Assembly: GCF_963676685.1 (NCBI RefSeq)
Contig: NC_092355.1
Location: 50,096,001-50,160,000, forward strand
From: Mytilus edulis
Taxonomy: Eukaryota
Direction of reading: 5' to 3'
Length of the DNA: 64,000 bases
Shown here: positions 3,832 to 60,961 of the stretch, piece after piece
Layout of the letters: each line of letters begins with the position of its first letter
How positions within the stretch are numbered: the first letter of the stretch is position 1
Notes under the pieces: model-generated
Seen by the model: the letters and a program-made list of their open reading frames with translations, nothing else
Databases searched by the model: none
What the model was told of the DNA's origin: nothing
Made by a program: the position numbers and the translations under genes

Positions 3832-4417
3832 AAAGCACATTATATAATGACGTTTCGACATCATATAATGAAGTAAACCTAACCACATAATATAAGATTA
3901 CAAGCACATAATATAAAGATGTTTGCACGTAATAAAAGGGAAACAGCACATCATATAAGGATATGTACACACCTTATAAGGATATTTGCACATCATATAA
4001 GTATATTTGCACATCATATAAGGATCTTTGCACATAATATACGTACATTTGCACATCATATAATAATGTTTGCACATCATACAAGAATGTTTGCACATCA
4101 TATAAGTATATTTGCACATCATATAAGTATATTTGCACATCATATAAGTATATATGCACATCATTTAAGTATGTTTGCACATAATATAATGATGTTTGCA
4201 CATCATATAATGATATGTGCACATCATATAAGGATATTTGCATTTCATATAAAGGTGTTTGCACATCACATAAAGGTGTTTGCACATCATATAATGACAA
4301 GTGCACATCATATAAAGGTAAAAGCACAGCATATAAAGGTAAATGCACATCATATAAAGGTAAATGCACATCATATAAAGGTAAATACACATCATATAAA
4401 GGTAAATGCATATCATA
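3832..4417. repeat. 21-bp minisatellite (consensus ~TTTGCACATCATATAAGGATA)
   Basis: About 27 tandem units visible directly; explains the repetitive ORFs in several frames. Confidence 0.9.
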
Positions 4418-4666
4418 AAATGAAAATGGTCATAACAAGACAGTGTTGGCGTTCCATAGATATAGGAAGCTGGAATATGAATATTGATGAGACAATTCTC
4501 CATCCAAGTCGCAATTTGTAAAAGAAAAACTATTATAGGTCAATGTATGTTCTTTAACACGGAGCCTTGGCTCACACCGAACAGTAAGCAACAAAGGGCC
4601 CGAAAATGACTTGACTGTGTATTTTTTTTTTATAAATCAAGATATAAAAAACCTATACATGATAAT

Positions 4667-4872: not shown

Positions 4873-4986
4873 AAACTACATGTAAACAGATAGACTACTT
4901 ACATCGCCGGCACTTTTTCTTTTATGTCACTATAGAAACTTATAAACCTAATTACACAATTAATTAATATTTTTTTTTGTAAATAG

Positions 4987-6363
4987 TTTGATGTAGACGG
5001 CATATGCCTTGGACGACTGTTTGAAAGAAAGATACGATTAATGGCCTCAATAAAGTCACCTACTAAGTTGTCAAGAAGCATGATAGAAGAAATACTTACC
5101 ATTATAGCATGGTCGTTTAGTGATGACATTTCGGCGACTAACTTCAAATATCAATACAATGTAGAAAAGAAGGACTATGTGTTATATATACAAATATCTG
5201 GTGACTTGATAAATGAGCAATCATATGAGGAGGGGTTAAACATCGAAAAACAAATTGGTAAAGCACAGTGGCTAATACGTGTTTCTCCTCGAAATGGATT
5301 TACCTTTCAAGTAAATGTAGTGGGTGTAACAAAAGAACAAGGTGTTGACATACAGCTTTCGGAAGCTACCGTCAAGAATAAATTGAACCAATTTAAAGTT
5401 AACCAAAATGACAGCTTCGAAAAGAAATTATGTGCTAATAGTATTATTGAATGTGAAATATCGAATGACGTTGAAAATCCAAGAACAGTCATCACCGAAT
5501 TTGCTTGTGTTGATTTCATCGAACAACAACCAATTCTTTTCAGCACGAATATAAATATGAATGTTATAACATATACAGGTATGGGAATTTCTGTGATTGC
5601 ATTGACAGCATCTTTACTTGTTTATAGAAGGTTGGGTATGCACAGGAGTATCCCCGGTTCAAATGTAGAAAACCTTACAATTGCTCTGTTAATTTCAGAT
5701 ATAATATTCATGTTAGGAATAGGGGCTAATGATCTCTCTTTGGTTTGCTATAGTGTTGGAGTTGCACTCCATTATCTTTGGCTGGTAGTGTTTTCATTTA
5801 AATGTATTGCTTTGATTCACATGTGTCACTCTTTTACAAAATTGTCACTTATTTCTGGAGATATTGAGGTCGGAATGTTTTCTAAAAGGCCCTTTTTCAC
5901 ATTGCTCGGTCTCCTTCTCCCATGTTTATTTGTTGTACCAGCAGTCTTGATTGACTTTTTGGAGGTTGATGGTGTGAGTATTAATTACAGTGGGTCTATT
6001 TGTTTTCCAACGGGTTATCCAGGTAACTTGATATTTGTTTCTGCTCCTATAGGGCTGGCTGTCGTTATCAATATTACATGTCTGTTGTGTATTGCAGTTG
6101 TGATAACAAAACAGTCATTGGGAATACGCCACATTCGAAGATCAAATTCGTTCCAGTACCTCCCAGTGTTTGTGCGTATTAGTCTTGTGACAGGTATGCT
6201 ATGGATTTCAGGACTGCTCGGAGCCATTGTCCAAAATGAAGCAATTGAATACTTGTTTGTCATATGTTGTAGTTTCCAGGGACTGTTTATTGCCTTCGGA
6301 AACTTGACTACAAAACGTATTTTCCGTGAACTACGGAAACGTAAGCAACCATTAATCAAGTAA
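4987..6363 (+). CDS. last coding exon of a class B (secretin/adhesion/Methuselah-like) 7TM GPCR; upstream exon(s) lie outside the window
   Basis: Polypyrimidine + AG acceptor at 4985-4986, in frame with ORF 5041-6363; seven hydrophobic segments with class-B motifs (C...GVALHYLWLVVF, GLLLP, CSFQGLFI); paralogous exon at 63399. Confidence 0.9.
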   Translation, partial: FDVDGICLGRLFERKIRLMASIKSPTKLSRSMIEEILTIIAWSFSDDISATNFKYQYNVEKKDYVLYIQISGDLINEQSYEEGLNIEKQIGKAQWLIRVSPRNGFTFQVNVVGVTKEQGVDIQLSEATVKNKLNQFKVNQNDSFEKKLCANSIIECEISNDVENPRTVITEFACVDFIEQQPILFSTNINMNVITYTGMGISVIALTASLLVYRRLGMHRSIPGSNVENLTIALLISDIIFMLGIGANDLSLVCYSVGVALHYLWLVVFSFKCIALIHMCHSFTKLSLISGDIEVGMFSKRPFFTLLGLLLPCLFVVPAVLIDFLEVDGVSINYSGSICFPTGYPGNLIFVSAPIGLAVVINITCLLCIAVVITKQSLGIRHIRRSNSFQYLPVFVRISLVTGMLWISGLLGAIVQNEAIEYLFVICCSFQGLFIAFGNLTTKRIFRELRKRKQPLIK

Positions 6364-10071: not shown

Positions 10072-10558
10072 ATATATCTTTGTCAACAGGACAAGTTAAT
10101 ATTTTGTCAATTTTTTTTGAAAATTAAAGGAGTCAAATCTATACTAGCCAAAGTGTCGAGTACCGCTCAATTTCACTAAATCTTGTCTTATCTATTTATG
10201 AGTTTCAATATTTATTTCCTAATGGTATGTAAAATAGTGTTTGTTGTTATATGTGTTTCAATAAATATAAATAAAGGATACAAGATGAAATAAGTTTCGT
10301 TCTTGTTTATTACCATGTATAAGAATAGTTTTATGCAAGATCCCATCTTAAGTACCCAGATATTTTCGCTACGCTTATGGTAGACTTAGTTAGAAAGGCC
10401 CACTAGTAGAGATTGTTGCAAGATCCTCGATCTTTTTACCTCAGGTATACATGTTGGTCTTCAAATGGGTATGACGCGTATGAATTTTTTATGGACCGAT
10501 CCAAACATGATATTTCAATAAATCGTTGTCAAAGCCTATCCCAGCACCCCAACTCCAT

Positions 10559-10711
10559 AGATCATAAGGTGTTTCGAACATCTATTTAGACCAATTAGAA
10601 TTAACTAATTGACCATGGCCATGTCCATCGTCAGGAGCCCAAGCCATTGCATAGTGACACTTATTATAAAAATACTGTAATTTTTATTAGGGGCTCGACA
10701 CCTCATGATCT
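10559..10711 (-). ncRNA. type III hammerhead ribozyme (unit B copy 1)
   Basis: Minus strand: AGATCATGAGGT-GTC-GAGCCC...GGGCTC-CTGACGA-T-GGACAT...ATGTTC-GAAAC-ACCTTATGATCT; stem III 14 bp, stem I 6 bp, stem II 6 bp, full catalytic core; predicted cleavage between 10697 and 10696. Confidence 0.9.
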
Positions 10712-10803
10712 GTTTTATATTTTTCTATACTCTTTATCTACTTAACTTTGTTTATCAATTTAACGAACAAAGTTTAGAAACTATTTTCATAATCTGCAAC
10801 ATA

Positions 10804-11422
10804 TCAATTACCCAGAGTTGCTGATGTTACTGTGTCTTTCAAGTTTTTATGCATACGGAAAGCAAACAGAGGTCTTTTATCAAATAAAATAAAATGTTTG
10901 CCTCTTCGTCATCCTTCAATGTATCCCATTGATTTAAGATATTGTTCTTTACGTGTGATTTCTGTCTTGAAAACACTGTTGAGAATACCAAGGGAGGCCA
11001 CTGTAATACAGATTTGGGCTTTACCATTAATGTGTCTTTTCTTTGTTTTGCAGTCACTTCCTGCATAACCGGTTCATATCCAGATTTTGTTAAAAAAGGG
11101 ATGACGTTTAAAAATTTCACCCTTGTCAAAATGATATTTACATCTTAGTTTTCTTGCAAATTCATTGAAATCTGATGCAATACTAGATTTTGCAAATTTG
11201 GTCGAGGGAGACGGTAGATATTTTAATCCTATACTGAGTAACAAAATCTCATCGTCTTTTATTTTTTCAGTGGTGAATATTTTAACATATTCACGTGCTT
11301 TTTCAATTGATTTTTTTCCTCTTGAGAGAGCGAATCTATATCTTTCTATTTTCTGATAGAAGGCCTTTTTCATGATAGCCTTTTTTGTTTTTTTCGCTCT
11401 CTTAAAGTGTCTGTTAGCCATG
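10804..11422 (-). pseudogene. internally deleted PLE ORF (N-terminus fused to C-terminus, RT core missing, two frameshifts), copy 1
   Basis: MANRHF...LLSIGLKYLPSP...DFNEFARKLRCKY...HPF /fs/ TKSGYEP...PPLVFSTVFS...WDTLKDDEEANILF /fs/ DKRPLFAFRMHKNLKDTVTSATLGN*; aligns by eye with both ends of the 649-aa unit A protein. Confidence 0.85.
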
Positions 11423-12631
11423 CTTACAGATCGGAGGAAATCGCCAGAAGGCAGTGTGCAATTCATTTCTTGATGTTATATTGATTCTTTATCAAGCCTG
11501 TATGAACTCACCAACCAATCAGATATCAGTTACTCATTAGGAAACTAAATAAGGGGAAGAGGAGAACATCCCTCCTAGACATTGCAACCAATCACCATTC
11601 ATTGCTTTATAAACTAACACGTTTACCAGATGCATTTTGACAATTTGACTTTTTAATTTATCAGACAATCAAAAAGCATACATTTTTGTTTTGCAAATCT
11701 CAGCACTTTCTTATCAACTTATTCCTCTCACTAAAAATCTCTGACGTATTGGTTTTTACATTTACTTTCCTTGTATTATCATGTATGTATTACAACTTTA
11801 ACATGAAATTGACATAATTAATCAACCCTTTAACCTTTCGGTATAGATATTTTTCCAATTTAATATCTATTTTGACAGAAATGAAAAACACATTATCAAT
11901 GCACTATTGCTATTGCCGATAATAACCGTTGCATTTAATTATAACGTATTAATTATGACCACTTATCGTAAACAAATATCAAAAATTATCTTTGATGGTT
12001 TTATTTCTCAACTTTAAATAAAGATATATTTGTAAACATTTGTTTATCATCATAATTACATTGGGTTCATTGATAAACTAACCTTCTTTGTTCTGCTCTA
12101 TCAATTATCTATAAATTAAGCGTAACTCAAGAACTGATAAGATATTACACTTTTATTTACACACTTTACAGCTGTTTGTCAAAAAACATCACTAACGAAG
12201 TGTATAGGCACACGTTACATGTTTTATCTTCTTCCAATGACTTATCTGATGTTACACAGTTCAGTTAAATCATATCCATCGCTAGTTGCATTTATGTAAT
12301 TCAAGTTTGTTTATAAAACTGTATAAAATATAAAGCCATAACAGATCACTTGTGGGACTGCCCTTAAAGTGTCAGATTGCAATTTGAGACGATGTGGGTA
12401 AAACCCCAATTTTTTAGCATTGCTGATGATAGATATTTCCTCCAGTGAATAAGCAAATACAGGAAATTGCAGCAGTGTTCAAAATGCACCAAATAACCAC
12501 TTTATTGTGGTACGAGGAGATCATAAAGTCAACAAGATGTCAACTAAACAATTCTCAGGCTGACAGCGTGATAATAGCTCAAATATTTCAATAAATCGTT
12601 GTCAAAGCCTATCCCAGCACCCCAACTCCAT

Positions 12632-12784
12632 AGATCATAAGGTGTTTCGAACATCTATTTAGACCAATTAGAATTAACTAATTGACCATGGCCATGTCCA
12701 TCGTCAGGAGCCCAAGCCATTGCATAGTGACACTTATTATAAAAATACTGTAATTTTTATTAGGGGCTCGACACCTCATGATCT
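12632..12784 (-). ncRNA. type III hammerhead ribozyme (unit B copy 2)
   Basis: Same sequence as 10559-10711, offset 2073. Confidence 0.9.
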
Positions 12785-12876
12785 GTTTTATATTTTTCTA
12801 TACTCTTTATCTACTTAACTTTGTTTATCAATTTAACGAACAAAGTTTAGAAACTATTTTCATAATCTGCAACATA

Positions 12877-13495
12877 TCAATTACCCAGAGTTGCTGATGT
12901 TACTGTGTCTTTCAAGTTTTTATGCATACGGAAAGCAAACAGAGGTCTTTTATCAAATAAAATAAAATGTTTGCCTCTTCGTCATCCTTCAATGTATCCC
13001 ATTGATTTAAGATATTGTTCTTTACGTGTGATTTCTGTCTTGAAAACACTGTTGAGAATACCAAGGGAGGCCACTGTAATACAGATTTGGGCTTTACCAT
13101 TAATGTGTCTTTTCTTTGTTTTGCAGTCACTTCCTGCATAACCGGTTCATATCCAGATTTTGTTAAAAAAGGGATGACGTTTAAAAATTTCACCCTTGTC
13201 AAAATGATATTTACATCTTAGTTTTCTTGCAAATTCATTGAAATCTGATGCAATACTAGATTTTGCAAATTTGGTCGAGGGAGACGGTAGATATTTTAAT
13301 CCTATACTGAGTAACAAAATCTCATCGTCTTTTATTTTTTCAGTGGTGAATATTTTAACATATTCACGTGCTTTTTCAATTGATTTTTTTCCTCTTGAGA
13401 GAGCGAATCTATATCTTTCTATTTTCTGATAGAAGGCCTTTTTCATGATAGCCTTTTTTGTTTTTTTCGCTCTCTTAAAGTGTCTGTTAGCCATG
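12877..13495 (-). pseudogene. internally deleted PLE ORF, copy 2
   Basis: Same as 10804-11422, offset 2073. Confidence 0.85.
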
Positions 13496-14730
13496 CTTAC
13501 AGATCGGAGGAAATCGCCAGAAGGCAGTGTGCAATTCATTTCTTGATGTTATATTGATTCTTTATCAAGCCTGTATGAACTCACCAACCAATCAGATATC
13601 AGTTACTCATTAGGAAACTAAATAAGGGGAAGAGGAGAACATCCCTCCTAGACATTGCAACCAATCACCATTCATTGCTTTATAAACTAACACGTTTACC
13701 AGATGCATTTTGACAATTTGACTTTTTAATTTATCAGACAATCAAAAAGCATACATTTTTGTTTTGCAAATCTCAGCACTTTCTTATCAACTTATTCCTC
13801 TCACTAAAAATCTCTGACGTATTGGTTTTTACATTTACTTTCCTTGTATTATCATGTATGTATTACAACTTTAACATGAAATTGACATAATTAATCAACC
13901 CTTTAACCTTTCGGTATAGATATTTTTCCAATTTAATATCTATTTTGACAGAAATGAAAAACACATTATCAATGCACTATTGCTATTGCCGATAATAACC
14001 GTTGCATTTAATTATAACGTATTAATTATGACCACTTATCGTAAACAAATATCAAAAATTATCTTTGATGGTTTTATTTCTCAACTTTAAATAAAGATAT
14101 ATTTGTAAACATTTGTTTATCATCATAATTACATTGGGTTCATTGATAAACTAACCTTCTTTGTTCTGCTCTATCAATTATCTATAAATTAAGCGTAACT
14201 CAAGAACTGATAAGATATTACACTTTTATTTACACACTTTACAGCTGTTTGTCAAAAAACATCACTAACGAAGTGTATAGGCACACGTTACATGTTTTAT
14301 CTTCTTCCAATGACTTATCTGATGTTACACAGTTCAGTTAAATCATATCCATCGCTAGTTGCATTTATGTAATTCAAGTTTGTTTATAAAACTGTATAAA
14401 ATATAAAGCCATAACAGATCACTTGTGGGACTGCCCTTAAAGTGTCAGATTGCAATTTGAGACGATGTGGGTAAAACCCCAATTTTTTAGCATTGCTGAT
14501 GATAGATATTTCCTCCAGTGAATAAGCAAATACAGGAAATTGCAGCAGTGTTCAAAATGCACCAAATAACCACTTTATTGTGGTACGAGGAGATCATAAA
14601 GTCAACAAGATGTCAACTAAACAATTCTCAGGCTGACAGCGTGATAATAGCTCAAATATTTCAATAAATCGTTGTCAAAGCCTATCCCAGCACCCCAACT
14701 CCATAGTTTATCAATGTCTGTATGAACTCA

Positions 14731-15957
14731 CCAAAAATTCACCGTCTTGAAACAGAGACGTTTAAACAAATACAACATGATGGATTAAATGAATTAAATA
14801 TAATTCCACCTGGCAGACCAATTATATCACAGTGTGGTTCTGTAACTGAACTTATAGGTCATTACGTTGACTATTTTCTTATACCAATAGTTCAAAATCA
14901 GTCTACATATATAAAAGATACTACATCGTTCATTAATATCATTGAGAAATTAAAACCTATGGCAAACAGCCTTTTGGTTTCATATGATATAACACAGATG
15001 TTTACTAATCTACCTCAAGAAGCGTTATTGAGTGCGGTTGAACGAGCCTATGACAGTTTTGACAAATCAAACTTCAAAGTCAATGCTCCGCCAGTCAATG
15101 TATTAATACATTTGTTGAGAATTATTTTAGAAAACAATGTATTTGAATTTGATGGGAAAATTTACAAACAAGTAATAGGTACGGCAATTGGTGCAGTTCC
15201 TTCACCGGAAATCTGTGACATACTTATGTTTGAAATAATGAATCAAATTATTTCTGCATTTCAATATAAAGACAAAATATTCTATCATGGCAGATATAGA
15301 GACGATGGATTCATAATATATGATGGAACATCAGATGAAATTATAGATTTTTTTCGTCTAGCAAATGATTATAACCCCTTATTAAAGTTCACCTATGAAA
15401 TCAAAAACGATAAAATGTCGTTCTTGGATGTTGATGTAATTAAAGGTCAAAGATTTACAACATATGGCATTCTTGACCTCGAAATACATTTTAAAGAAAC
15501 AAATTCTTATCTGTTTCTGCACAGAAATAGCTGTCACTCACAGCATGTATTCAGAGGATTTATTAAAGGTGAAGCAATACGGCAAATTAGAAATACAAGT
15601 GATCATAACAAATTAATAAACAATCTAACTAATTTCAAAGTGAAATTATTAGATAGGGGTTATGATAACGTGGAAATAGATGATAGTATTACTGATGCTT
15701 TATCAATTGACCGTACTGATTTATTACAACAAAACAAATCTAAAGAGAAGCAAAGTATTCCGTTAGTTTTAATAACTAAATATAATCCATATATACGTAA
15801 AATAAAGAAACGTATAATGAAACACTGGCATTTATTACAGTTCGACGAAGACTGTGTACAAATATTCAATACAGCACCAATAGTTGCGTATAGCAAACAT
15901 AAAAGTATTGGAGATATGCTTAGTAGATCAAAGTTAAAGACTTTAACATTAAATTGA
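14731..15957 (+). pseudogene. 5'-truncated copy of the PLE RT ORF
   Basis: Identical to the C-terminal ~408 aa of the full ORF; the ATG at 14722 lies in junction filler sequence. Confidence 0.85.
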
Positions 15958-15962
15958 CAGTT

Positions 15963-16136
15963 GGACCCCTGATGATGGTAGATCTGTCATAATAACTAGA
16001 TATTTTGAAGAAGAATTAAAATATAAATATATCAATATGATAATTTTCATATTAGATTATATTCAAATAATGCATCTTAAAATGACCATCCCAAGCTTAA
16101 CTACCGAAACACGAAATTGATATTTGTGTCGGGTCC
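15963..16136 (+). ncRNA. type I hammerhead ribozyme with 119-nt loop II insert (unit A copy 1)
   Basis: GGACCC-CTGATGA-T-GGTAG-[119 nt]-CTACC-GAAAC-ACGAAATTGATATTTGT-GTC-GGGTCC; all three stems pair; predicted cleavage after C16130. Confidence 0.88.
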
Positions 16137-16566
16137 TATCAGCAATATGGGATGCGTGGTTGCATGGGTGTTTTATTATAACAAAATGTATTCATGGACG
16201 GCTGTCCTACTGCACCTTACCGAGAATCGTTTTCTGCATGGAGAATGATCCGCATTTCCTGTTTGATGGGATACGTATATGGTGTTAATTTATTGTTCCG
16301 GTGGACAAAGCTTTTAGCCTTGAGTTGAAAATACTTCATGACATGATTTACTTTGAAAAGTTCCACAAAACAATGTGACTCATTTATACATCATCAACAC
16401 GGACAATTTATCACTGCTATCTTATCCCCGCCTATCAACCCACGTGAATTTGGGCGGATCTTCTTTCAAGGTTTATAACATGTGTAAATCTAAAAATTCT
16501 TCAGCCACCCAATGTGAGCTCAACAAAGGCACGTAGCTAAGAGAATCACCCAATGTGAACTCAAAA

Positions 16567-18516
16567 ATGGCACGTCGTTTTAATAGAAATGCTAAAAAGC
16601 AAAAATTCCGATTCTACAATAAAAAAGAACGGAATAAATACAATATGCAGCAAAGAACTGCACATGCAAAAAAGCATGTAATTAATCTATCAAAACGCAG
16701 ATTATCAAATCAGGAATATATCCTGTTGGCGAAAGGCTTGAAATTTATACCAACGCCATCAAGCAAAAATGCAAAAATGTCTATACTAAAAGACTACAAT
16801 GAATTTGCTAGAAAATTACGATGTCGGTATATGTTCAGTCAAGAAAAAACTGACCTTCATCCATTTCGTAGCAATACAGGATATAAACCTGCCTCTACGT
16901 GCCATACGTTGGAAAATTATATAGATTTAACCAAGCTTGAATTGTCTTTTCTACCAATAGAAAGAAATGTAAAAAACAATCTTACTAAAGGCGAAAGAAT
17001 AGCGCTACGCAATTTGAAAAATGATGAAACAATAGTAATAAAAAAGGCAGATAAAAATTCAAATTGTGTTATTTTAGACAGGCTAGACTACATAACAGAA
17101 GTCACAAGACAACTAAATACTCAACATTACTGCCAATTAGATTCATTTAACATGGCAGAACTGAAAATCCAGGTCATTGAGTATATTAAATCATTATACG
17201 ACCAAGGCATAATCGACAAAATATCATTTAAATTTTTAACAAATGGTCAAAAATTAAGAGATGCACGATTAGGGAGAATTTATATTCTCCCAAAAATTCA
17301 CCGTCTTGAAACAGAGACGTTTAAACAAATACAACATGATGGATTAAATGAATTAAATATAATTCCACCTGGCAGACCAATTATATCACAGTGTGGTTCT
17401 GTAACTGAACTTATAGGTCATTACGTTGACTATTTTCTTATACCAATAGTTCAAAATCAGTCTACATATATAAAAGATACTACATCGTTCATTAATATCA
17501 TTGAGAAATTAAAACCTATGGCAAACAGCCTTTTGGTTTCATATGATATAACACAGATGTTTACTAATCTACCTCAAGAAGCGTTATTGAGTGCGGTTGA
17601 ACGAGCCTATGACAGTTTTGACAAATCAAACTTCAAAGTCAATGCTCCGCCAGTCAATGTATTAATACATTTGTTGAGAATTATTTTAGAAAACAATGTA
17701 TTTGAATTTGATGGGAAAATTTACAAACAAGTAATAGGTACGGCAATTGGTGCAGTTCCTTCACCGGAAATCTGTGACATACTTATGTTTGAAATAATGA
17801 ATCAAATTATTTCTGCATTTCAATATAAAGACAAAATATTCTATCATGGCAGATATAGAGACGATGGATTCATAATATATGATGGAACATCAGATGAAAT
17901 TATAGATTTTTTTCGTCTAGCAAATGATTATAACCCCTTATTAAAGTTCACCTATGAAATCAAAAACGATAAAATGTCGTTCTTGGATGTTGATGTAATT
18001 AAAGGTCAAAGATTTACAACATATGGCATTCTTGACCTCGAAATACATTTTAAAGAAACAAATTCTTATCTGTTTCTGCACAGAAATAGCTGTCACTCAC
18101 AGCATGTATTCAGAGGATTTATTAAAGGTGAAGCAATACGGCAAATTAGAAATACAAGTGATCATAACAAATTAATAAACAATCTAACTAATTTCAAAGT
18201 GAAATTATTAGATAGGGGTTATGATAACGTGGAAATAGATGATAGTATTACTGATGCTTTATCAATTGACCGTACTGATTTATTACAACAAAACAAATCT
18301 AAAGAGAAGCAAAGTATTCCGTTAGTTTTAATAACTAAATATAATCCATATATACGTAAAATAAAGAAACGTATAATGAAACACTGGCATTTATTACAGT
18401 TCGACGAAGACTGTGTACAAATATTCAATACAGCACCAATAGTTGCGTATAGCAAACATAAAAGTATTGGAGATATGCTTAGTAGATCAAAGTTAAAGAC
18501 TTTAACATTAAATTGA
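16567..18516 (+). CDS. Penelope-like reverse transcriptase, 649 aa, no GIY-YIG domain
   Basis: First ATG at 16567; PLE N-terminal motifs VINLS...LAKGLKFIP, KKADK, LPKIH, PGRPIIS; RT motifs YDITQMFTNL, QVIGTAIG, RYRDDG, FLDV; ends at PIVAYSKHKSIGDML, where the endonuclease linker normally begins. Confidence 0.93.
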   Translation: MARRFNRNAKKQKFRFYNKKERNKYNMQQRTAHAKKHVINLSKRRLSNQEYILLAKGLKFIPTPSSKNAKMSILKDYNEFARKLRCRYMFSQEKTDLHPFRSNTGYKPASTCHTLENYIDLTKLELSFLPIERNVKNNLTKGERIALRNLKNDETIVIKKADKNSNCVILDRLDYITEVTRQLNTQHYCQLDSFNMAELKIQVIEYIKSLYDQGIIDKISFKFLTNGQKLRDARLGRIYILPKIHRLETETFKQIQHDGLNELNIIPPGRPIISQCGSVTELIGHYVDYFLIPIVQNQSTYIKDTTSFINIIEKLKPMANSLLVSYDITQMFTNLPQEALLSAVERAYDSFDKSNFKVNAPPVNVLIHLLRIILENNVFEFDGKIYKQVIGTAIGAVPSPEICDILMFEIMNQIISAFQYKDKIFYHGRYRDDGFIIYDGTSDEIIDFFRLANDYNPLLKFTYEIKNDKMSFLDVDVIKGQRFTTYGILDLEIHFKETNSYLFLHRNSCHSQHVFRGFIKGEAIRQIRNTSDHNKLINNLTNFKVKLLDRGYDNVEIDDSITDALSIDRTDLLQQNKSKEKQSIPLVLITKYNPYIRKIKKRIMKHWHLLQFDEDCVQIFNTAPIVAYSKHKSIGDMLSRSKLKTLTLN

Positions 18517-18521
18517 CAGTT

Positions 18522-18695
18522 GGACCCCTGATGATGGTAGATCTGTCATAATAACTAGATATTTTGAAGAAGAATTAAAATATAAATATATCAATATGAT
18601 AATTTTCATATTAGATTATATTCAAATAATGCATCTTAAAATGACCATCCCAAGCTTAACTACCGAAACACGAAATTGATATTTGTGTCGGGTCC
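18522..18695 (+). ncRNA. type I hammerhead ribozyme (unit A copy 2)
   Basis: Same as 15963-16136, offset 2559. Confidence 0.88.
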
Positions 18696-19125
18696 TATCA
18701 GCAATATGGGATGCGTGGTTGCATGGGTGTTTTATTATAACAAAATGTATTCATGGACGGCTGTCCTACTGCACCTTACCGAGAATCGTTTTCTGCATGG
18801 AGAATGATCCGCATTTCCTGTTTGATGGGATACGTATATGGTGTTAATTTATTGTTCCGGTGGACAAAGCTTTTAGCCTTGAGTTGAAAATACTTCATGA
18901 CATGATTTACTTTGAAAAGTTCCACAAAACAATGTGACTCATTTATACATCATCAACACGGACAATTTATCACTGCTATCTTATCCCCGCCTATCAACCC
19001 ACGTGAATTTGGGCGGATCTTCTTTCAAGGTTTATAACATGTGTAAATCTAAAAATTCTTCAGCCACCCAATGTGAGCTCAACAAAGGCACGTAGCTAAG
19101 AGAATCACCCAATGTGAACTCAAAA

Positions 19126-21075
19126 ATGGCACGTCGTTTTAATAGAAATGCTAAAAAGCAAAAATTCCGATTCTACAATAAAAAAGAACGGAATAAATAC
19201 AATATGCAGCAAAGAACTGCACATGCAAAAAAGCATGTAATTAATCTATCAAAACGCAGATTATCAAATCAGGAATATATCCTGTTGGCGAAAGGCTTGA
19301 AATTTATACCAACGCCATCAAGCAAAAATGCAAAAATGTCTATACTAAAAGACTACAATGAATTTGCTAGAAAATTACGATGTCGGTATATGTTCAGTCA
19401 AGAAAAAACTGACCTTCATCCATTTCGTAGCAATACAGGATATAAACCTGCCTCTACGTGCCATACGTTGGAAAATTATATAGATTTAACCAAGCTTGAA
19501 TTGTCTTTTCTACCAATAGAAAGAAATGTAAAAAACAATCTTACTAAAGGCGAAAGAATAGCGCTACGCAATTTGAAAAATGATGAAACAATAGTAATAA
19601 AAAAGGCAGATAAAAATTCAAATTGTGTTATTTTAGACAGGCTAGACTACATAACAGAAGTCACAAGACAACTAAATACTCAACATTACTGCCAATTAGA
19701 TTCATTTAACATGGCAGAACTGAAAATCCAGGTCATTGAGTATATTAAATCATTATACGACCAAGGCATAATCGACAAAATATCATTTAAATTTTTAACA
19801 AATGGTCAAAAATTAAGAGATGCACGATTAGGGAGAATTTATATTCTCCCAAAAATTCACCGTCTTGAAACAGAGACGTTTAAACAAATACAACATGATG
19901 GATTAAATGAATTAAATATAATTCCACCTGGCAGACCAATTATATCACAGTGTGGTTCTGTAACTGAACTTATAGGTCATTACGTTGACTATTTTCTTAT
20001 ACCAATAGTTCAAAATCAGTCTACATATATAAAAGATACTACATCGTTCATTAATATCATTGAGAAATTAAAACCTATGGCAAACAGCCTTTTGGTTTCA
20101 TATGATATAACACAGATGTTTACTAATCTACCTCAAGAAGCGTTATTGAGTGCGGTTGAACGAGCCTATGACAGTTTTGACAAATCAAACTTCAAAGTCA
20201 ATGCTCCGCCAGTCAATGTATTAATACATTTGTTGAGAATTATTTTAGAAAACAATGTATTTGAATTTGATGGGAAAATTTACAAACAAGTAATAGGTAC
20301 GGCAATTGGTGCAGTTCCTTCACCGGAAATCTGTGACATACTTATGTTTGAAATAATGAATCAAATTATTTCTGCATTTCAATATAAAGACAAAATATTC
20401 TATCATGGCAGATATAGAGACGATGGATTCATAATATATGATGGAACATCAGATGAAATTATAGATTTTTTTCGTCTAGCAAATGATTATAACCCCTTAT
20501 TAAAGTTCACCTATGAAATCAAAAACGATAAAATGTCGTTCTTGGATGTTGATGTAATTAAAGGTCAAAGATTTACAACATATGGCATTCTTGACCTCGA
20601 AATACATTTTAAAGAAACAAATTCTTATCTGTTTCTGCACAGAAATAGCTGTCACTCACAGCATGTATTCAGAGGATTTATTAAAGGTGAAGCAATACGG
20701 CAAATTAGAAATACAAGTGATCATAACAAATTAATAAACAATCTAACTAATTTCAAAGTGAAATTATTAGATAGGGGTTATGATAACGTGGAAATAGATG
20801 ATAGTATTACTGATGCTTTATCAATTGACCGTACTGATTTATTACAACAAAACAAATCTAAAGAGAAGCAAAGTATTCCGTTAGTTTTAATAACTAAATA
20901 TAATCCATATATACGTAAAATAAAGAAACGTATAATGAAACACTGGCATTTATTACAGTTCGACGAAGACTGTGTACAAATATTCAATACAGCACCAATA
21001 GTTGCGTATAGCAAACATAAAAGTATTGGAGATATGCTTAGTAGATCAAAGTTAAAGACTTTAACATTAAATTGA
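19126..21075 (+). CDS. Penelope-like reverse transcriptase, 649 aa, second full copy
   Basis: Translation identical to 16567-18516. Confidence 0.93.
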   Translation: MARRFNRNAKKQKFRFYNKKERNKYNMQQRTAHAKKHVINLSKRRLSNQEYILLAKGLKFIPTPSSKNAKMSILKDYNEFARKLRCRYMFSQEKTDLHPFRSNTGYKPASTCHTLENYIDLTKLELSFLPIERNVKNNLTKGERIALRNLKNDETIVIKKADKNSNCVILDRLDYITEVTRQLNTQHYCQLDSFNMAELKIQVIEYIKSLYDQGIIDKISFKFLTNGQKLRDARLGRIYILPKIHRLETETFKQIQHDGLNELNIIPPGRPIISQCGSVTELIGHYVDYFLIPIVQNQSTYIKDTTSFINIIEKLKPMANSLLVSYDITQMFTNLPQEALLSAVERAYDSFDKSNFKVNAPPVNVLIHLLRIILENNVFEFDGKIYKQVIGTAIGAVPSPEICDILMFEIMNQIISAFQYKDKIFYHGRYRDDGFIIYDGTSDEIIDFFRLANDYNPLLKFTYEIKNDKMSFLDVDVIKGQRFTTYGILDLEIHFKETNSYLFLHRNSCHSQHVFRGFIKGEAIRQIRNTSDHNKLINNLTNFKVKLLDRGYDNVEIDDSITDALSIDRTDLLQQNKSKEKQSIPLVLITKYNPYIRKIKKRIMKHWHLLQFDEDCVQIFNTAPIVAYSKHKSIGDMLSRSKLKTLTLN

Positions 21076-21080
21076 CAGTT

Positions 21081-21254
21081 GGACCCCTGATGATGGTAGA
21101 TCTGTCATAATAACTAGATATTTTGAAGAAGAATTAAAATATAAATATATCAATATGATAATTTTCATATTAGATTATATTCAAATAATGCATCTTAAAA
21201 TGACCATCCCAAGCTTAACTACCGAAACACGAAATTGATATTTGTGTCGGGTCC
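21081..21254 (+). ncRNA. type I hammerhead ribozyme (unit A copy 3)
   Basis: Same as 15963-16136, offset 5118. Confidence 0.88.
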
Positions 21255-22958
21255 TATCAGCAATATGGGATGCGTGGTTGCATGGGTGTTTTATTATAAC
21301 AAAATCGATTTCTCAAATGAATAACAAAAATATAAAGATATCAAGATTTGGTATGATTACCAAGGAGGCAACTTTCTTCCAGTGTTCAAATGAAATCAAT
21401 GTAAGCAATCAAACGAATCGTACGACCTTCAACAATTAGAAGACCTATAACGTATGGTCGGTTATTGAAGGCGCCGACATAAAAAAAAAATAGGAAACAA
21501 TGTAAACGATGAAACCAAAGGTCTAATTTATAACAAAATGAAATACAAATATTGTAGACATCAACAACAACAATTGAACTACAATCTCGGTGTCTTAAGA
21601 CAGGCAAAAACGAGGGTGACGGGATTGATAAAGCTTGTGTAAGAACAAACTGTTAAAACAGACATCGGGTTAACTCAAAAACTCGGCACGATAACTGTTG
21701 TATCCCTTTGTAATAATAGATTGTATGTGTCCAACTGATGTTATGGTAAACATAAACAATGTTCTCATTTTATGTTTTTTCATGACTTTTATTTATTATG
21801 TTAAAAAAAAAAAATACGATATAATTTAGATTATATGTGTTTGAATAATGATATCGAAAATGAAAACTACTTATCCTCTATACATATTGTATATTGTATT
21901 TGTGTTGATAAGAGTAGTACATGTATATTAACCAATCAAAAAGAGAAATATGACACAAAACTAGATCATATGTTCTCAATTGATGATCATGATGATGTAG
22001 AAATAGAAAACAGTGTAATATGTAATTTATCTTATATGTATGTTTATTCACAAAATACCAACAAAAACATATGTCTGAAAGAAACAGATAATTTTAAAAC
22101 AAGCATTAAACCAACAAAAAGAAAAAACTTTTATTCACTAGTTAACAAAATGAAACGATCACTAGTTCTACTATCCACGTCATTAGGCTGTATTTGTTTA
22201 ATTCGGTTCATCACCAAAATGCTTTTATTACACGTAAGCACTGATTGTACAAACAAATCTTCTATTTTCTGCAATTCAAACAAGGATAATCGGAAAATAT
22301 ACCAACCACTTCATATTCCTACGAAAATTGCAAATATGGTACGCAACTACATGTAGTATATCACCAAATACCGCATCACAAACAGGAAGTACGAAACGAA
22401 TTGCACTCATATATTTTTGCACCATACTATCAAGACACACATATTCCACAACCAGCTATGCTAATCTTTTTGACGCAGTATATTCACTTGAAGTACAGAT
22501 CCATATCTTATTAAAACACATGATACACACATGTACAGCAGCGTTAAGTGAACATTTAAAAATCTCCAAAGAATTCTACACAAAAAGATATCATTTCCAG
22601 GTTCAAATGTATGGAAAATTTAAGACGTCATCAAAAACTGTTGAGAATATATTTCATTTGACCACAGTTATAATGTTGATGAGCACTCGAACACTCCTTA
22701 TTGAACAATTCAAATATCTGAAAATAGAAAAAGTAATTTCTGAAAATCAAGCTCCGATATACATACAGGCACAAGTACAAAACTGTATTATTGTAAAAAA
22801 CACATATTATAATGATACATATATATTATATATACTCATGCATTACTACTATTATACGTTTAGTCATAGTTGTATTGTATACAACAACTTAAAACAGTTT
22901 GTTATGATGTATATCTCTGTAGTAATCTTTGCTAATACATGTATAGTTCATTATTTAG

Positions 22959-25900
22959 ATGAGTAATAATTTAAATATTTGCTCCTTGAACTGCCAAGGG
23001 CTAGGAAAAAAAGAAAAGCGAGACAGACTATATATTTGGTGTGAAAATCAAAAATGTGACATCTTGTTTATTCAAGAGTCCCATTTCACCGATAAAAACA
23101 TAAATGTAATAAATAGTGAAACTAAATGTAAGATATACCATAGCTTTGGCAATTCCCTATCCAGAGGTGTTTCAATTTTAATTAAAGAAAACATAAATCA
23201 CAAAATAATAAATGAAATTAAAGATGAGGAGGGCAGGTTTATTCTAATTAATGTAGAACTTGATAATAACATCTTCACTTTAGTTAATTTTTATGCACCA
23301 AATATACAAAGAAATAGAAATTCTTTCTTCAAAAAAATAAACAACTTAATTGAAAATAATAGATTAGGCATTTTAATACTTGGAGGGGATATAAATGAAA
23401 GTCTGACTGAAAACGACAGAAAAAGTACAAGTACACAAAAATTTAATAAACCTGTAAATAGTTTGAAACAATTAATAAAAAAACATAAGTTAGTTGATAT
23501 ATGGAGAGAAATTAACCCAAACAAAAGACAGTTCACCTGGAGAAGGAAAAATAACTTTAACATAGCAAGCAGAATAGATTATTTTCTTATTAGCTCTGAT
23601 ATAAGACCACATATTACAGCAGCAGATATTAGACCCGCTGCTATTTCTTACACTGATCATCAGGCAATTTCATTAAAGCTAAGACACAAAGCACACAGTA
23701 GAGGCCGAGGTTTCTTTAAAATTAATAACAGTATATTGAATGACACAAAATATCAAAATCTCATTAATAACTTAATTCAAACTTATAAACAAAAAATACT
23801 TACTACGGCTGTAGATCCTCGAGTTAAGTGGGACGTTTTTAAAGCTGAAGTAAGAGACATAACCATTAAATACTGTAGGCAAAAACAAGCTGAAAATAAA
23901 AATGAAATAATTAAATTAGAACTGTCATTAAAAAAATTGAACGAAAATGCAGAAAACTTACAGGATAATAATGTTCAAAATAGAATAAACAATGCTGAGA
24001 AAAAACTAGAGAACCTTTACATAAATGAAGCAAAGGGAGCTCAGGTTAGATCACGTGTAAAATGGACAGAAGAAGGAGAAAAAAACACAAAATTTTTTAT
24101 AGGCCTTGAAAAATCCAGACAAACTCATAAAAATATTTCTGCACTTACGAATGAAAAAGGAGAAATTATAACAGATTCATCTGAAATTTTAAAGTTAGAA
24201 AAAAACTTCTATGAAAATTTATATAAAAGTACAAATCCTAATGAAAATGAAATAAAAAAATATATAACAGAAACAAAAGTAGATAAAACTCTTTCTCATG
24301 AGGAAACTCAAAATCTAGAAGGGGAGCTTACCATAAAGGAATGTACAGAAGCTATTAAATCTATGAAATTAAATAAATCACCGGGCATCGACGGGATCAG
24401 TGTAGAATTTTATCGAACCTTCTGGACAAATTTAAAAGAAATTGTTGTTAAAGTTTTTAACACATGCTATCAAAAGGAAGAAATGAGCACACTACAAAAA
24501 ATAGGAGTAGTCTCTTTATTATATAAAAAGGGAAACCCACTTCTTTTAGACAACTATAGACCAATTACTTTACTCAATGTTGATACAAAGCTTATGGCAT
24601 ATTCTTTAGCACAACGTCTTAAACCAATACTAACTAAAATCATCCATAGTGACCAAAATGGTTACATAAAAAATAGATATATAGGTTTCAACATTCGTCA
24701 AATTCAAGACATAATAGACCATGCAGAATACTTTAATATTGAAGGAGCATTGCTCTTCATAGATTTTTCCAAGGCCTTTGACTCATTGGAATGGCCATTT
24801 ATGTATGAAGCACTCAAGAAATTCGGCCTTCCAAATCCTTTTATCAAATGGGTTAAAACTCTGTACAAAGACATAACGGGTTGTATGTTAAACAATGGGT
24901 GGGTCTCATCACCATATAACATTAATCGCGGTATTAGACAAGGCTGCCCGTTAAGTTCCCTGATTTTTGTTATTGCTGTAGAAATTTTGTCCTGCAGAAT
25001 AAGACAAGACAACAACATCAAAGGTTTTCAAATTAAGTTAGATACTAAAACACACAGTTTAAAGATTTCTCAATTAGCTGACGACACAACACTTTTTCTA
25101 AAATCAAAAAATGAAGTACGTCACACTCTTAATATTATTGAAATCTTTGGAACGCTATCAGGTTTAAAATTAAATAGATCAAAAACTGAGGGCATTTGGT
25201 TAGGAAAATTAAAACATTGTAAAGATAAGTTTGAAAATATAACATGGAATAAAGGACCAATAAAAAGTCTAGGAGTTTATTTTGGAACAGATCGAGCTGA
25301 ATGTGATAAGCTGAATACTGAAAAAATAATACAGAAATGTGACAAATTAATAAGTAATTGGAAAAAAAGAAATCTTACAATGATAGGTAAAATAACAGTT
25401 GTAAAATCTCTTCTTATACCTAACCTTACATATTTAGCTTCAGTCACAAACCTACCACATGAATTTATTCAACAGTTTAAAACTATTATCTACAATTTTA
25501 TATGGGATGGTAAACGAGAAAAGGTCAAACGAACCACCCTTAGCAAAAATACTACTACGGGAGGGCTTAAAATGACAGATATAGACAATTATATAACTGC
25601 ACTACAAATAGCATGGATAAAAAGACTTACTGCAGATGATTTTGCTAACTGGGAAGTAATTCCGACATTTTACTTTAATAAATTTGGTGCTAATTTCATG
25701 CTACTTTACATGAATCTAGACAACATTTACTCAATACAAAACCTACATAAAACTTTACCAAAATTCTACTTAGAAATTGTAAAGTCTTGGTTCAAAGTAC
25801 AAAATTTAAATAATACCAAACTCAATATGAATTTTAAAAACATTAGACAACAAATCTTATGGGGAAACAAACTGATAAAATTTCAAGGAAAGTGTTTAGT

Positions 25901-26068
25901 TTTTATAAATTGGATAAAAGAAGGTATTATATACGTTAACGATATAATAGACCAAAATGGTAATATCTCTCAAGAAATAATATCTAATAAAATATCCTCA
26001 AAATCCAATTTAATGTTTGAAATTTCAAAACTTAATTATGCCTTACCAAATGAATGGCTCAAGGTACT
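22959..26068 (+). CDS. LINE ORF2 5' part (APE endonuclease + RT), interrupted by the CACTA insertion
   Basis: APE motifs SLNCQGL, IQESH, GGDIN, SRIDY, TDH; RT motifs KSPGIDG, YRPITLLN, DFSKAFDS, GIRQGCPLS, QLADD. Confidence 0.93.
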
Positions 26069-28008
26069 CACTGCATGAAATGATGCATTTATTAGAAAAT
26101 TATATCCATATAAAAGCTAATATATATTTAAAATTTCAAAATTTATCATTAGTATAATCCATTTGAAAATATCTTATTTACACCGTATTTACTTTAAGTT
26201 TAATATAACCAATAAACTTTTAAGAATAAACCCAATTTACATATACTTTTAAAGTTGTATAAATCTAAAATTTATTTTCTTTTAAATTACAGTAAACCTA
26301 TTTAAATGAGAAATTTAAATTAGGGAAAATTTAAGTAAATTTAATAAAATTAGAAATTTAAAGCAGAACAAATGTCTTTATTTTTCTGATTTAAACCATT
26401 TACTGTGAATTAAATTTAAAGTTTACAAATGCAATAATTAAAATAAACTTTTTATATACTAATTTAAATATTGTTAAATTTTCGTAAATTTGAAAATTAT
26501 TCATATGTAATTGCCATTAAATTTAATATTTAATATCAATTTATTACCCGCAATAAACTGTTCCAAATGTTCTAAGTAACTTCTTTCTTCCTTTTTTTGT
26601 TTGTTTGTTTGTTTGTTTGTTTGTTCGTTTTTGTTTTTTTTTTTCGATTGTTATAAGCGTCAAAAAGGGGAAAGGGTGTGTGCAAATATGTTGATAGTTT
26701 GATGATTTACAAATCTACAAGATTCACAATTAACAAGAGTGTTTGTATTTTTATAAAGATGGTTAGGTGAGACTTAGGCCATAACCTTATGCACAAATTT
26801 GCTGTACCATATGGCTGTAAAAGTTTCAAGCTTCAGGTGTATCTTGACTTGCTACATGCCCCTATGTCATTTATCGTTTTTTGTTCCGTAATGAGGTAAA
26901 AAAGAAAAAAAAAGAACTGCATTTTGCTTCTAATATTCTAAACGCTAAAAAACGTTAAAAAGGACACCGGCACTTTGACTCAGCAAAAGGTAATTCGATC
27001 AATCAGTAATCAGAAGACTCTGGACTATGAATCTTAGAAAAGACTGCCCTGAGAATATTTTCACATCAAACAATTAGAATCACGAAATTGCAACGATAAA
27101 CACCAAAATCGAGCAGCACACCTATATCATATTTCCGATACTCAAGAAGTACATTTTGCAATATAAAACTCTGATATTATATTTTTCTTATTTACACAAG
27201 AAGCCCCGGAACAAGCTATTTAGAAGTATTAATAATAAAGTAAATACATTTTATGTGGTCATATTCTTTATTATACACATTCAAATAGCTACATGTTTGA
27301 AGAAGTGTTACATATTTGGCATCACATTCTGATCAAACCTTATTTTGATAAATATAAATTTAAACAAACTGAAAACGTATTCATTATATTTCTATATTCA
27401 TTTTTTACATTAGATTTATGATTTTTTTTTTCTCGAGAAGTCAGCGTAATGATGACATGTACATATATGTTCATTATTCGCCATACCCTGTTCCTCGTGA
27501 GAAGGGGCAACCAAGATAAGCAAATCTATTTATAAAAAACCATAAAAATAAATGTAATGAATTTTGTGAATTGATTAATAGTTTTAGTGGAAAAAAATGA
27601 TAAGACAAAACAAATGAATAACACATCATAATCAATGACATACACATGCTACATTTCATTTAAAAATAAACATGTACATTATTGAAAGAATAGATCCAAG
27701 CGAACAAAATTTTACAAAAAAATAAACAATTGTGTACAAAAGTGAAAATATGTTTGTGTACAGCGCGTGTGTGTCAATCCGCCGCTTCCCTATCCCACCA
27801 AGCATATCAAATGGTTTTACGTTAAGGGAGAATGACCCGTGGTTCTTTTCATGTTTAGCTGAAACTGAATATAAACACAATGAAACGAGACGGCAACATA
27901 AGTTCAAATTAATTCGTCGTAATAAGTTAAACAAGACCATGTATGCATGCCAAAATGTTTATTAGTACATGTATCTGAAATGACTGATGGTCAAAACTCC
28001 ATATCACC

Positions 28009-37894: not shown

Positions 37895-38906
37895 ATATAA
37901 CTGACCCAGATACACACAGTATACAGTGTTCGTTTTAAAACAAATATAATTGCGTCGTCAAGGGCCATCATATCACATATATGATATCAGAGACGTAGAT
38001 AACAACCTGTTAAGACCTGTAAAAACGACAGACAACTTTCGAGACGTTCCGAGAATTTTATTCTGACTTCCGGCCGAAAGTTATCGAGTGGCCCATAGAC
38101 ACATCCAAAACACCCCAATATATAAGCCAATATATAAGCATGAACCCCTCAGGCGGTTCATGCAAAAAAAAAATACGGATCCGATATGATTGCCATTGAG
38201 AAAACTTTCCGCAAGAGACCAAATGAGACAGAAACTAAGAGATATGGGTCACCATACGGCCTTCAACAATGAGAAAAGCCTATACCACGTAATCAGCTAT
38301 AAAAGGCCCCGACATTACAAATGCAATACAATAACATAAGTTCGTTTTCTTTGTTGTATCATTAAACACACAACTTATCAGTTGTCTTTTGAACAGCAAG
38401 CATACGACATGAAAATAACACTAGCAAGCCTCACCACTTCTCTCGACATTGACAAAAATGGCCTTGTATATAGGTTAATATCCATGGTGATAGAGATGAA
38501 AGAAAATCAGTTTAAGCTCAAATTTGGATGTTTTTTCTCCATCTTACTTAGGGTCAAACAGGATTACCAAGGCCTGTAGTTCAACATTTACTATGACAAA
38601 ACAAAACGGGATGGTCGGTCTGGGTACTTTAGCAACTTAAGTACTCTAACATTATATTCACGATTGAAGGGTACACAGACATTTGAATAAATGAAAATAT
38701 GAGACTTTAGTTTTCCATTTCTTTTAAATTTTTGCAGTGATTTCATCTGAATTCAATTATATTTGAAAATGCTTTGATAAAAAGTGTATTTCCCTATTTA
38801 TTATTTTACAAAGAACCAATGAACATTTATAATAACATCACTCTGTTTCTTAATATTTACACTGAGAAATAGTATAAGTAAAGCTGTCTTTATTTTTTCA
38901 GCGAGA

Positions 38907-58750: not shown

Positions 58751-59404
58751 GAAAATCGCGTTTTCAACTTTACTAGTTCCAGCTTCACTGATAAGTTTTT
58801 TACTGACAGAAAGTTCATCTGGCGTATAAAGTTCCAATCCAAATTACTTATTTCATTCCGCCCAATCAATCCAATGAAAATCTCCCTTTTCACTTTACCT
58901 GTTCGAGCTTCACTGATAAGTCTTTTAAAGACAAAAAGTTCATCTGGCGTATACAGTTTCAACCTTGTATCTATGATGAGTTTTCAGGTATAATAATACA
59001 ATGATTGTCATCACTGTGTACACTCAATCAAATGTTATAACAAGAAGAAATGCTGACCAATGCATAAACTACCACTACAAAAATCTCAGTAGTAATTTTA
59101 ATTTACTGCATAATGATTCCGTCCTTACGCACAATCAATCCAATTTCAATATAAAATCTATAAGGTAATTAGCTTAGAATGATCATCTTCATCATGTTCA
59201 TTACGAAAAATTTATTCAATATTAAATCAAATTTATTTGAACAAAACTACAATTAATGTGTAGTACATTCAAACCAGGTTTTGATCGACAGATGATATAT
59301 ATTGCTCAGTACAAAAATCATAAAGTAAGTAAATTGATAATCACGAAATTATTCTAAGACGGTATAAATAAAGTGTTTTAAAAGTAACAAATACGGTTTT
59401 TGCA

Positions 59405-60583: not shown

Positions 60584-60587
60584 GTAA

Positions 60588-60961
60588 GTAAATAAACTCG
60601 TCATAGATACCAGGACAAAATTTTGTATATAGGCCAGACGCGCGTTTCGACTACAAAAGACTCATCAGTGACGATCGAATCCAAAAAGTTAAAAAGACCA
60701 AATAAAGCACGAAGTTGAAGAGCATTGAGGACCAAAATTCCCAAAAGTTTTGCATAATCCAGCTCAGGTAATCTATGCCTGAGGTAGAAAAGCCTTAGTA
60801 TTTCAAAAATTCAAAATTTTGTACACAGTTAATTTATAAATATAACCATGTCAATGATAATTCATGTCAGCACAAAACGTGCTGACTACTGGGCTGGTGA
60901 TACCCTCGGGGAAATAAATCTCATCCAGCAGTGGCATCGACCCAGTGGTTGTAAATAAACT
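60588..60961 (-). mobile_element. retrozyme monomer (~363 bp) with a near-intact minimal type I hammerhead at 60633-60672
   Basis: Terminal direct repeat GTAAATAAACT (60588, 60951); minus strand GTCA-CTGATGA-GTCTTTTGTAGTC-GAAA-CGCGC-GTC-TGGC with palindromic stem III, matching the design of mussel non-LTR retrozymes. Confidence 0.85.

Follow-up and report, generated by a model that had tools for sequence, protein, structure and literature searches.

A complete type I hammerhead ribozyme motif is present at positions 15963-16136 on the forward strand of the window, by which is meant the whole stretch of 64,000 nucleotides of Mytilus edulis DNA that was analysed. It belongs to a Penelope-like element (PLE) whose reverse transcriptase (RT) carries no endonuclease (EN). 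The motif is real, and its self-cleavage is predicted from the sequence. The ribozyme probably cuts the element's tandem transcript after C16130, which would give the template of reverse transcription its 5' end, and a predicted pseudoknot, called P-A below, probably braces the long loop II.

The hammerhead motif and its host element

The motif starts 5 nt past the stop codon of a 649-aa RT open reading frame, and every feature given in a preliminary description of this DNA was found at its position. Stem I is formed by GGACCC (15963-15968) and GGGUCC (16131-16136). The core CUGAUGA (15969-15975) is followed by an extra U at 15976. Stem II consists of GGUAG (15977-15981) and CUACC (16101-16105), which together enclose loop II (15982-16100), a segment of 119 nt with 80% A+U and AU-rich inner hairpins that varies from 93 to 126 nt in other copies of this family, family A. 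The segment GAAA (16106-16109) leads into the stem III hairpin, which ends at 16129; the stem has 7 bp including one G-U (16109-16115 with 16123-16129), and among copies its ACAC/GUGU pairing is kept while the hairpin loop varies. The predicted cleavage site GUC^G (16130-16131) follows, and other genomic copies start at 16131. A CUGANGA core, GAAA and NUH are thus arranged around three stems with stem I open, as in a type I hammerhead. The minimal dimeric PLE form, min-HHR, in which stem III is absent or of 1-2 bp with a palindromic loop, does not describe this motif, and the earlier statement that stem III is of full length holds.

The same motif recurs on the forward strand at 18522-18695 and 21081-21254. 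A descriptor permitting loops of up to 200 nt, with minimum stem lengths of 6 for stem I, 5 for stem II and 4 for stem III, matches the window at these three tandem copies only (15963, 18522 and 21081), and gave no match in any of 40 dinucleotide shuffles of the window. The expectation that standard models would miss the motif proved correct: Rfam gave no match at the gathering score in the window and none at E<=5 in 12400-16600, and the Rfam hammerhead models gave none at E<=5 in 10 loci of family A and related families. Within family A, 17 usable copies show the third pair of stem II as U-A (7 copies), as C-G (8 copies, GGCAG with CUGCC) or as a mismatch (2 copies); a mis-cut row, L009, was left out of this count. 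Both changes are present in contigs from three of four sequencing runs. An inner helix, GUCAU/AUGAC, was dropped, as its folding probability is 0. Nested folding of 15963-16136 gives stem II a probability of only 0.11; when the flanks are included, P-A reaches 0.99, a further duplex P-B reaches 1.0 and stems I and II fall to 0. Nested folding disfavours the ribozyme stems because the program is unable to score pseudoknots.

If the 119-nt loop were an intron, its removal would leave a compact hammerhead. The AU-rich composition of the loop would suit such a reading, and PLEs can have introns beside the hammerhead (PMC4209133). However, the loop ends are AU..AA and not GU..AG, the nearest GU would remove stem II, and the loop contains one strand of the pseudoknot. 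No joint that skips the loop occurs in the contigs of any of four sequencing runs, and contigs of two runs labelled or guessed as RNA cover it. The intron reading has almost no probability and was rejected.

The host element forms a forward-strand tandem array at 14731-21305, which comprises 2.57 units of 2559 bp with 100% identity and ends 57 nt past the third cut site. It contains two intact RT-only ORFs of 649 aa (16567-18516 and 19126-21075, both forward) and a 5'-truncated copy (14731-15957, forward) with its stop codon at 15955-15957. The ORF ends after the thumb, and no GIY-YIG domain was found in six frames of the spacer. Its motifs GLKF and ADKN correspond to GxKF and the DKG-like motif named for PLE RTs (PMC8557442). 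The best protein match, 99% identical, carries the label Mytilus edulis. Among the 120 matches listed, about 90 precede the first one with GIY-YIG; many of the EN-less relatives among them are full-length (about 645 aa), the named ones coming from mussel, oysters and scallop, and the GIY-YIG-bearing relatives among the matches listed are 28-36% identical to the family A RT.

The element differs from the PLE classes with which it was compared. It has neither the C-terminal GIY-YIG of the canonical EN+ clades (Penelope/Poseidon, Neptune, Nematis, Hydra) nor the N-terminal GIY-YIG without canonical hammerhead of Naiad/Chlamys. The telomeric site and reverse-complement telomeric repeats of Athena/Coprina are also missing: family A copies sit at internal positions of many large contigs, and no telomeric repeats were seen by eye in the family A unit. 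Its insertions have PLE traits, namely partial tandems, 5' truncation, inverted 5' copies and a fixed tail. Many intact EN+ PLEs are present in the same genome and could supply a nuclease in trans to the EN-less elements.

Several other features of the window were recorded, all on the forward strand where a strand is assigned. A non-LTR retrotransposon ORF of 1039 aa with AP endonuclease and RT (22959-26078) lies 1.6 kb downstream of the array. An intact 1001-aa ORF (38823-41828) matches Transposase_21 (tnp2), and we take it to be a CACTA/EnSpm-like transposase. Pieces of adhesion/secretin-type 7TM receptor genes (4987-6363, 59372-60595 and 63363-64000) appear to be duplicated, with 74% DNA identity between 4959-5576 and 63363-64000. 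A 21-bp tandem repeat at 3835-4426 has open frames encoding an HHI-type heptad peptide.

Sister families, the predicted pseudoknot P-A and permutation

Forty of 152 genomic matches were examined, of which 32 are diverged loci (37-52% protein identity) and 8 are family A loci. They yield 12 families besides A, and the window itself adds family N, for a total of 14. In all 14 the hammerhead is downstream of the ORF; eight families (A-H) are of type I and six (I-N) of type III. Five single loci (L039, L042, L046, L052 and L057) are truncated or mutated. The covariation in homologs that had been proposed as a check is present: all three stems pair in each of the 13 tabulated families despite their differing sequences. 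The core nucleotides, including the covariant U3-A8 of families F and G, are kept across the whole range of protein identity.

Two points of the preliminary description read differently in this wider set. The extra nucleotide between A9 and G10.1 had been compared with that of some viroid and satellite hammerheads; Cervera and De la Pena (2014, PMC4209133) describe it as a conserved trait of PLE hammerheads, so that it is not unusual here, and five of the 13 tabulated families (B, F, G, K and L) lack it. The long loop II, taken at first for a single insertion, is of variable length throughout the clade, with 28-119 nt in the eight type I families and 13-43 nt in the type III representatives. 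Loops elsewhere are also long: loops III of families F and G have 52-73 nt and loops I of the type III families 30-81 nt. Stem III of the type I families has 4-8 bp.

Family N occupies 10510-14706 on the reverse strand, head-to-head with the family A array; the member found there is internally deleted and repeated in tandem (2 x 2073 bp + 51 bp). Its type III hammerhead (12632-12784, reverse strand) has stems I, II and III of 6, 6 and 14 bp, a loop II of 39 nt and a 5-bp pseudoknot, with the predicted cut after 12770; the second copy (10559-10711, reverse strand) would be cut after 10697. The full-length N unit of 4262 bp encodes a 266-aa ORF1 with an RGG-rich end and a 667-aa EN-less RT (L252, L253), and the 2073-bp form is an internal deletion that is dispersed in its own right. 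Between N and A there is a patch of 24 nt (14707-14730) that resembles 13562-13585 within the N unit with 2 mismatches; it looks templated from there and shows microhomology to the start of the family A copy.

The covarying tertiary contact of the clade, as judged from these alignments, is P-A, which the preliminary description had overlooked. Here the bases immediately 5' of stem I pair with the initial bases of loop II. In family A the leader strand UGACAG (15955-15960, forward) overlaps the ORF stop codon and pairs with CUGUCA (15984-15989, forward). The two sides covary in 13 families, and pairs such as UAUUGG/CCAAUA, AUAUAGG/CCUAUAU, UGAGUC/GACUCA, ACGUGG/CCACGU and CAAGGC/GCCUUG are found in the others. 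Cognate leader and loop sequences have a mean of -7.7 kcal/mol, against -3.7 kcal/mol for non-cognate combinations, and none of 100000 permutations was as good, in a comparison whose windows were chosen after the pairing was seen and which includes related families (C/D/E and K/L). The cognate pair ranks first in only seven of 13 rows, and P-A has only 3-4 bp in families F, G and M. Three of the four motifs found later contain it (N 5 bp, L167 6 bp and L210 5 bp; 2 bp in L168). Stem I-stem II pseudoknots are required for fast cleavage in other hammerheads (PMC3088659), and P-A likely braces the fold in a way that lets loop II be long. Only the first bases of loop II are used by P-A, and therefore the remainder of the loop would be free to vary.

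The EN-less proteins form one supported group in the trees (SH-aLRT 99-100), which adjoins a group with the GIY-YIG domain inside the RT thumb. That sister group (P0093, P0095, P0097, P0098, P0101, P0104, P0106, P0109, P0117, P0119 and L240) has a zinc-finger linker together with GIY-YIG inserted in the thumb, so that the domain is neither N- nor C-terminal; our literature search found no endonuclease inside the RT thumb of PLEs. On the tree the two type labels are clustered: 2 changes are needed, and about 5 of 500 shuffles are as low. At least one switch between type I and type III happened within the clade. Multiple switches were considered and set aside, since a single origin of type III is compatible with the data (p-AU 0.83) even though the trees need two changes. 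In these loci the hammerhead region is often duplicated in short tandems, and duplication followed by loss may be the route of the permutation.

A first metagenome scan with one protein query found nothing. The second gave 79 loci, five of them with a convincing hammerhead after the ORF, of which two are near-copies of families H and I. The three independent ones (L167, L168 and L210) are of type I, with loops III of 80, 17 and 106 nt, respectively. By descriptor, no hammerhead was found in the EN-less metagenome loci L177 and L190, for which downstream DNA is present, or in a more basal EN-less group (L184-L188, L192, L196 and L205). The members of that group have frames of 850-940 aa with a long N-terminal extension. 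Descriptor matches in L057, L052 (as type I), L175, L178, L196, L205 and L242 were judged to be due to chance. Within a high-copy repeat (L141-L145, query 121-259) there is a decayed remnant, 122 nt long, of the type III hammerhead region of family J; in L143 and L144 this remnant starts at the nucleotide after the cut.

Copy ends, the predicted cut and the duplex P-B

The predicted cut after C16130 has indirect evidence in genomic junctions. In an unselected search of family A, 3 of 13 internal match starts, from two loci, fall at 16131, the first nucleotide after the cut (+1), with p about 1e-6 per junction. Targeted fetching gave five such junctions, spread over four loci, in which the DNA immediately upstream of +1 is foreign or non-templated. 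Three of these five are pieces of 62-75 nt from +1 to the tail, as would be expected if an RT began at the tail and ran off the cut end. Of 43 internal starts in family L, a type III family, 12 fall on +1; they come from eight loci with differing upstream DNA. The corresponding count in family K is 3 of 15. Families C, E and J have single cases, two of them with 1-2 nt of microhomology. The +1 junctions of family N (4 of 11 internal starts) were discounted for their 4-nt microhomology. These copy starts suggest that cleavage gives the copied RNA its 5' end. The majority of copies read through the site intact, and cleavage would therefore be partial or reversed.

Alternatively, the motif could be real and yet uncut in vivo, with the +1 junctions produced by RT stalling at the folded ribozyme or by transcription starting there. 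The frequent read-through of the site and the nested folding against stem II would agree with this, as would the Anolis element PAc, whose insertion in vitro needed no cleavage (PMC11167929). It is difficult to reconcile, however, with junctions that fall on one and the same phosphodiester (after NUH) whether the motif is of type I or type III, although the flanking structures and the sequences differ, or with the retention of the core, covariant U3-A8 included, among such diverged proteins. We regard it as quite improbable.

Several copies of family A (L013, L016, L018, L021 and L075) begin within the U/A-rich terminus, at +42 to +48, which possibly marks a second RNA start or a preferred junction site.

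The 3' ends are fixed: 56 of 63 match ends lie at +55 to +62 after the cut, where overlapping loci repeat some copies. A G-rich signal with 2-4 GG runs and 26-38% G, against 16% in the background, precedes the fixed 3' end in 12 of 13 families, the end called for family M being unreliable. Head-to-head composites make up 8 of the 21 family A loci examined, and in four of them the partner is a different family: N in the window, L in L072, a relative of 41% identity in L073 and N in L081. A tandem N-to-A junction is found in L253. In the composites of different families two different RNAs were therefore used in one insertion, and it is likely that priming took place at both ends of a DNA break. 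No target-site duplication stood out in 20 insertions, in which the longest shared words were 3-7 nt in AT-rich flanks.

These observations can be arranged in one mechanism. The hammerhead would cut the tandem transcript of the element after C16130 and so define where the template RNA has its 5' end. Reverse transcription would begin inside the RNA, just past the G-rich signal and about 57 nt after a hammerhead; an internal start downstream of the hammerhead has been demonstrated for PAc (PMC11167929). The RT would proceed upstream through uncut or re-joined junctions and give tandem arrays, or it would stop at +1 on reaching a cut end, from which it could move on to a different RNA, a sister family's included. 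In the sister families with the type III permutation the ribozyme would do the same job.

As a variant of this mechanism, the template may be a circular monomer made by cleavage and ligation, with the arrays arising from rolling-circle copying. Such a template would fit the arrays of identical units, which occur in the window and at further loci, and a near unit-length copy (L075, +42 to +56); P-B would keep the two ends of the monomer together, and mussel retrozymes form circles (PMC7229834). Copies ending exactly at +1, on the other hand, require a linear or re-nicked template, and multimeric transcripts of an existing array could also yield arrays. The circular template is possible but somewhat unlikely.

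The duplex P-B is formed by a 5' arm in loop II (16066-16099, forward) and a 3' arm (16140-16187, forward) that includes the G-rich end signal and the U/A-rich terminus. It contains the pairing of CAUCCCA (16087-16093) with UGGGAUG (16148-16154) that had been proposed as a pseudoknot or switch. The pairing is real and is the core of a long duplex of -23 kcal/mol, as strong as which none of 300 shuffles was found. It is not a conserved contact, and P-B was rejected as a feature of the whole clade: it is missing in 11 of 13 families. Its one counterpart, in family H, is of 12 bp at the same position (3 of 300 shuffles) and adjoins a 13-bp P-A. No compensatory change in P-B was seen among the family A copies. 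UGGGAUG is also the onset of the G-rich end signal, and A and H have the shortest tails (57 and 53 nt); in families B-E the end signal is 100-200 nt farther on and has no pairing beyond chance.

The strength of P-B, its equivalent beside P-A in family H and the short linkers on all four strands would allow it a place within the active fold. There, P-A and P-B would close two hairpins whose loops kiss as stems I and II, which gives a four-way junction. Such a junction is compatible with cleavage and alters only the role of P-B. Against it are the absence of P-B from most families, the identity of its 3' arm with an end signal that lies far from the ribozyme in B-E, and the need for about one turn of linking if both rings were closed. 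This arrangement is unlikely, and P-B is more likely a family-specific switch or clamp. In this role, which is a weaker part of the mechanism, P-B would span the cut and cover the end signal after transcription passes, acting as an off-switch or clamp that leaves cleavage partial.

Comparison with known systems

Published accounts assign PLE hammerheads to type I, wholly or for the most part (PMC4209133; PMC6765202; PMC7229834; bioRxiv 10.64898/2026.07.22.740005). In PMC4209133 the metazoan motifs are minimal and dimeric, and those of fungi and protists have no recognisable tertiary contact. The Mytilus families, in contrast, have a full stem III and a covarying pseudoknot, and six of 14 are of type III; together with the metagenome motifs they have loops of up to 119-126 nt (II), 106 nt (III) and 81 nt (I). 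Watson-Crick pseudoknots between stems I and II are known in all three hammerhead types, in about 40% of the set of Perreault et al. (2011, PMC3088659), and the present motifs resemble these but differ in the PLE host, the very long loops and the retention of the pseudoknot across the type I/III permutation in one clade. The discontinuous Clec2 hammerhead of mammals (PMC6155905) is likewise a hammerhead with a long insert and an example of type III in an animal. Its insert is in helix I, in an mRNA 3' UTR, while the mobile elements here carry theirs in loop II (or I, or III).

Among mobile elements, the Poseidon element PAc of Anolis (Frangieh et al. 2024, PMC11167929) shares with family A the fixed 3' ends and tandem arrays and, as proposed for family A, the internal RT start and extension on both target strands. 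PAc has GIY-YIG and a protein-assisted hammerhead, and no reads started at its cut, whereas the family A ORF is EN-less and copies start at the cut. Athena, Coprina, PLE-X and MjPLE01 (Craig et al. 2021, PMC8557442) also combine an RT without GIY-YIG with a hammerhead near the 3' end, and the upstream ORF1 of family N resembles these EN-deficient PLEs. Athena and Coprina are telomeric with telomeric repeats, whereas the Mytilus copies are internal on many chromosomes. The Mytilus EN-less RT groups with GIY-YIG-bearing Neptune-like proteins, in trees that lack curated reference PLE proteins and where the outgroup proteins are termed Neptune-like by their CX2-5CxxC linker. For the loss of EN from a Neptune-like element, MjPLE01, compared here by its description, is the precedent given (PMC8557442). 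The non-LTR retrozymes of Mytilus (Cervera and de la Pena 2020, PMC7229834) have the host genus, type I motif and tandem units in common with family A, but they are non-coding units of 350-390 bp, compared with a unit of 2.56 kb with an intact RT.

A literature search whose scope excluded most subscription papers, Repbase and Dfam returned no type III or long-loop pseudoknotted PLE hammerheads and no EN-less bivalve clade. In the supplement of PMC8557442 Mytilus is listed solely as Naiad families, and an earlier annotation is possible.

The odds slightly favour the following general reading. The EN-less, non-telomeric PLEs of bivalves would constitute a widespread, active clade whose pseudoknot-braced hammerhead is circularly permuted between type I and type III, accepts inserts of 30-130 nt in any loop and gives the retrotransposing RNA its 5' end; in family A, a second duplex would switch the RNA from self-cleavage to reverse transcription and back.

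What the hammerhead does for PLEs has been stated to be unclear (PMC8557442), and PAc, the one element that has been reconstituted, inserted without cleavage and gave no cut ends (PMC11167929). As far as the sequences indicate, the Mytilus genome records RNA 5' ends at the predicted cut for both type I and type III motifs, which would make this role testable with an intact endonuclease-free RT. The change between type I and type III among close relatives offers a natural case for the study of ribozyme permutation. Since neither Rfam nor published searches with short spacers pick up these motifs, censuses of hammerheads undercount them, and PLE clades that have been called hammerhead-less may merit a search with long loops.
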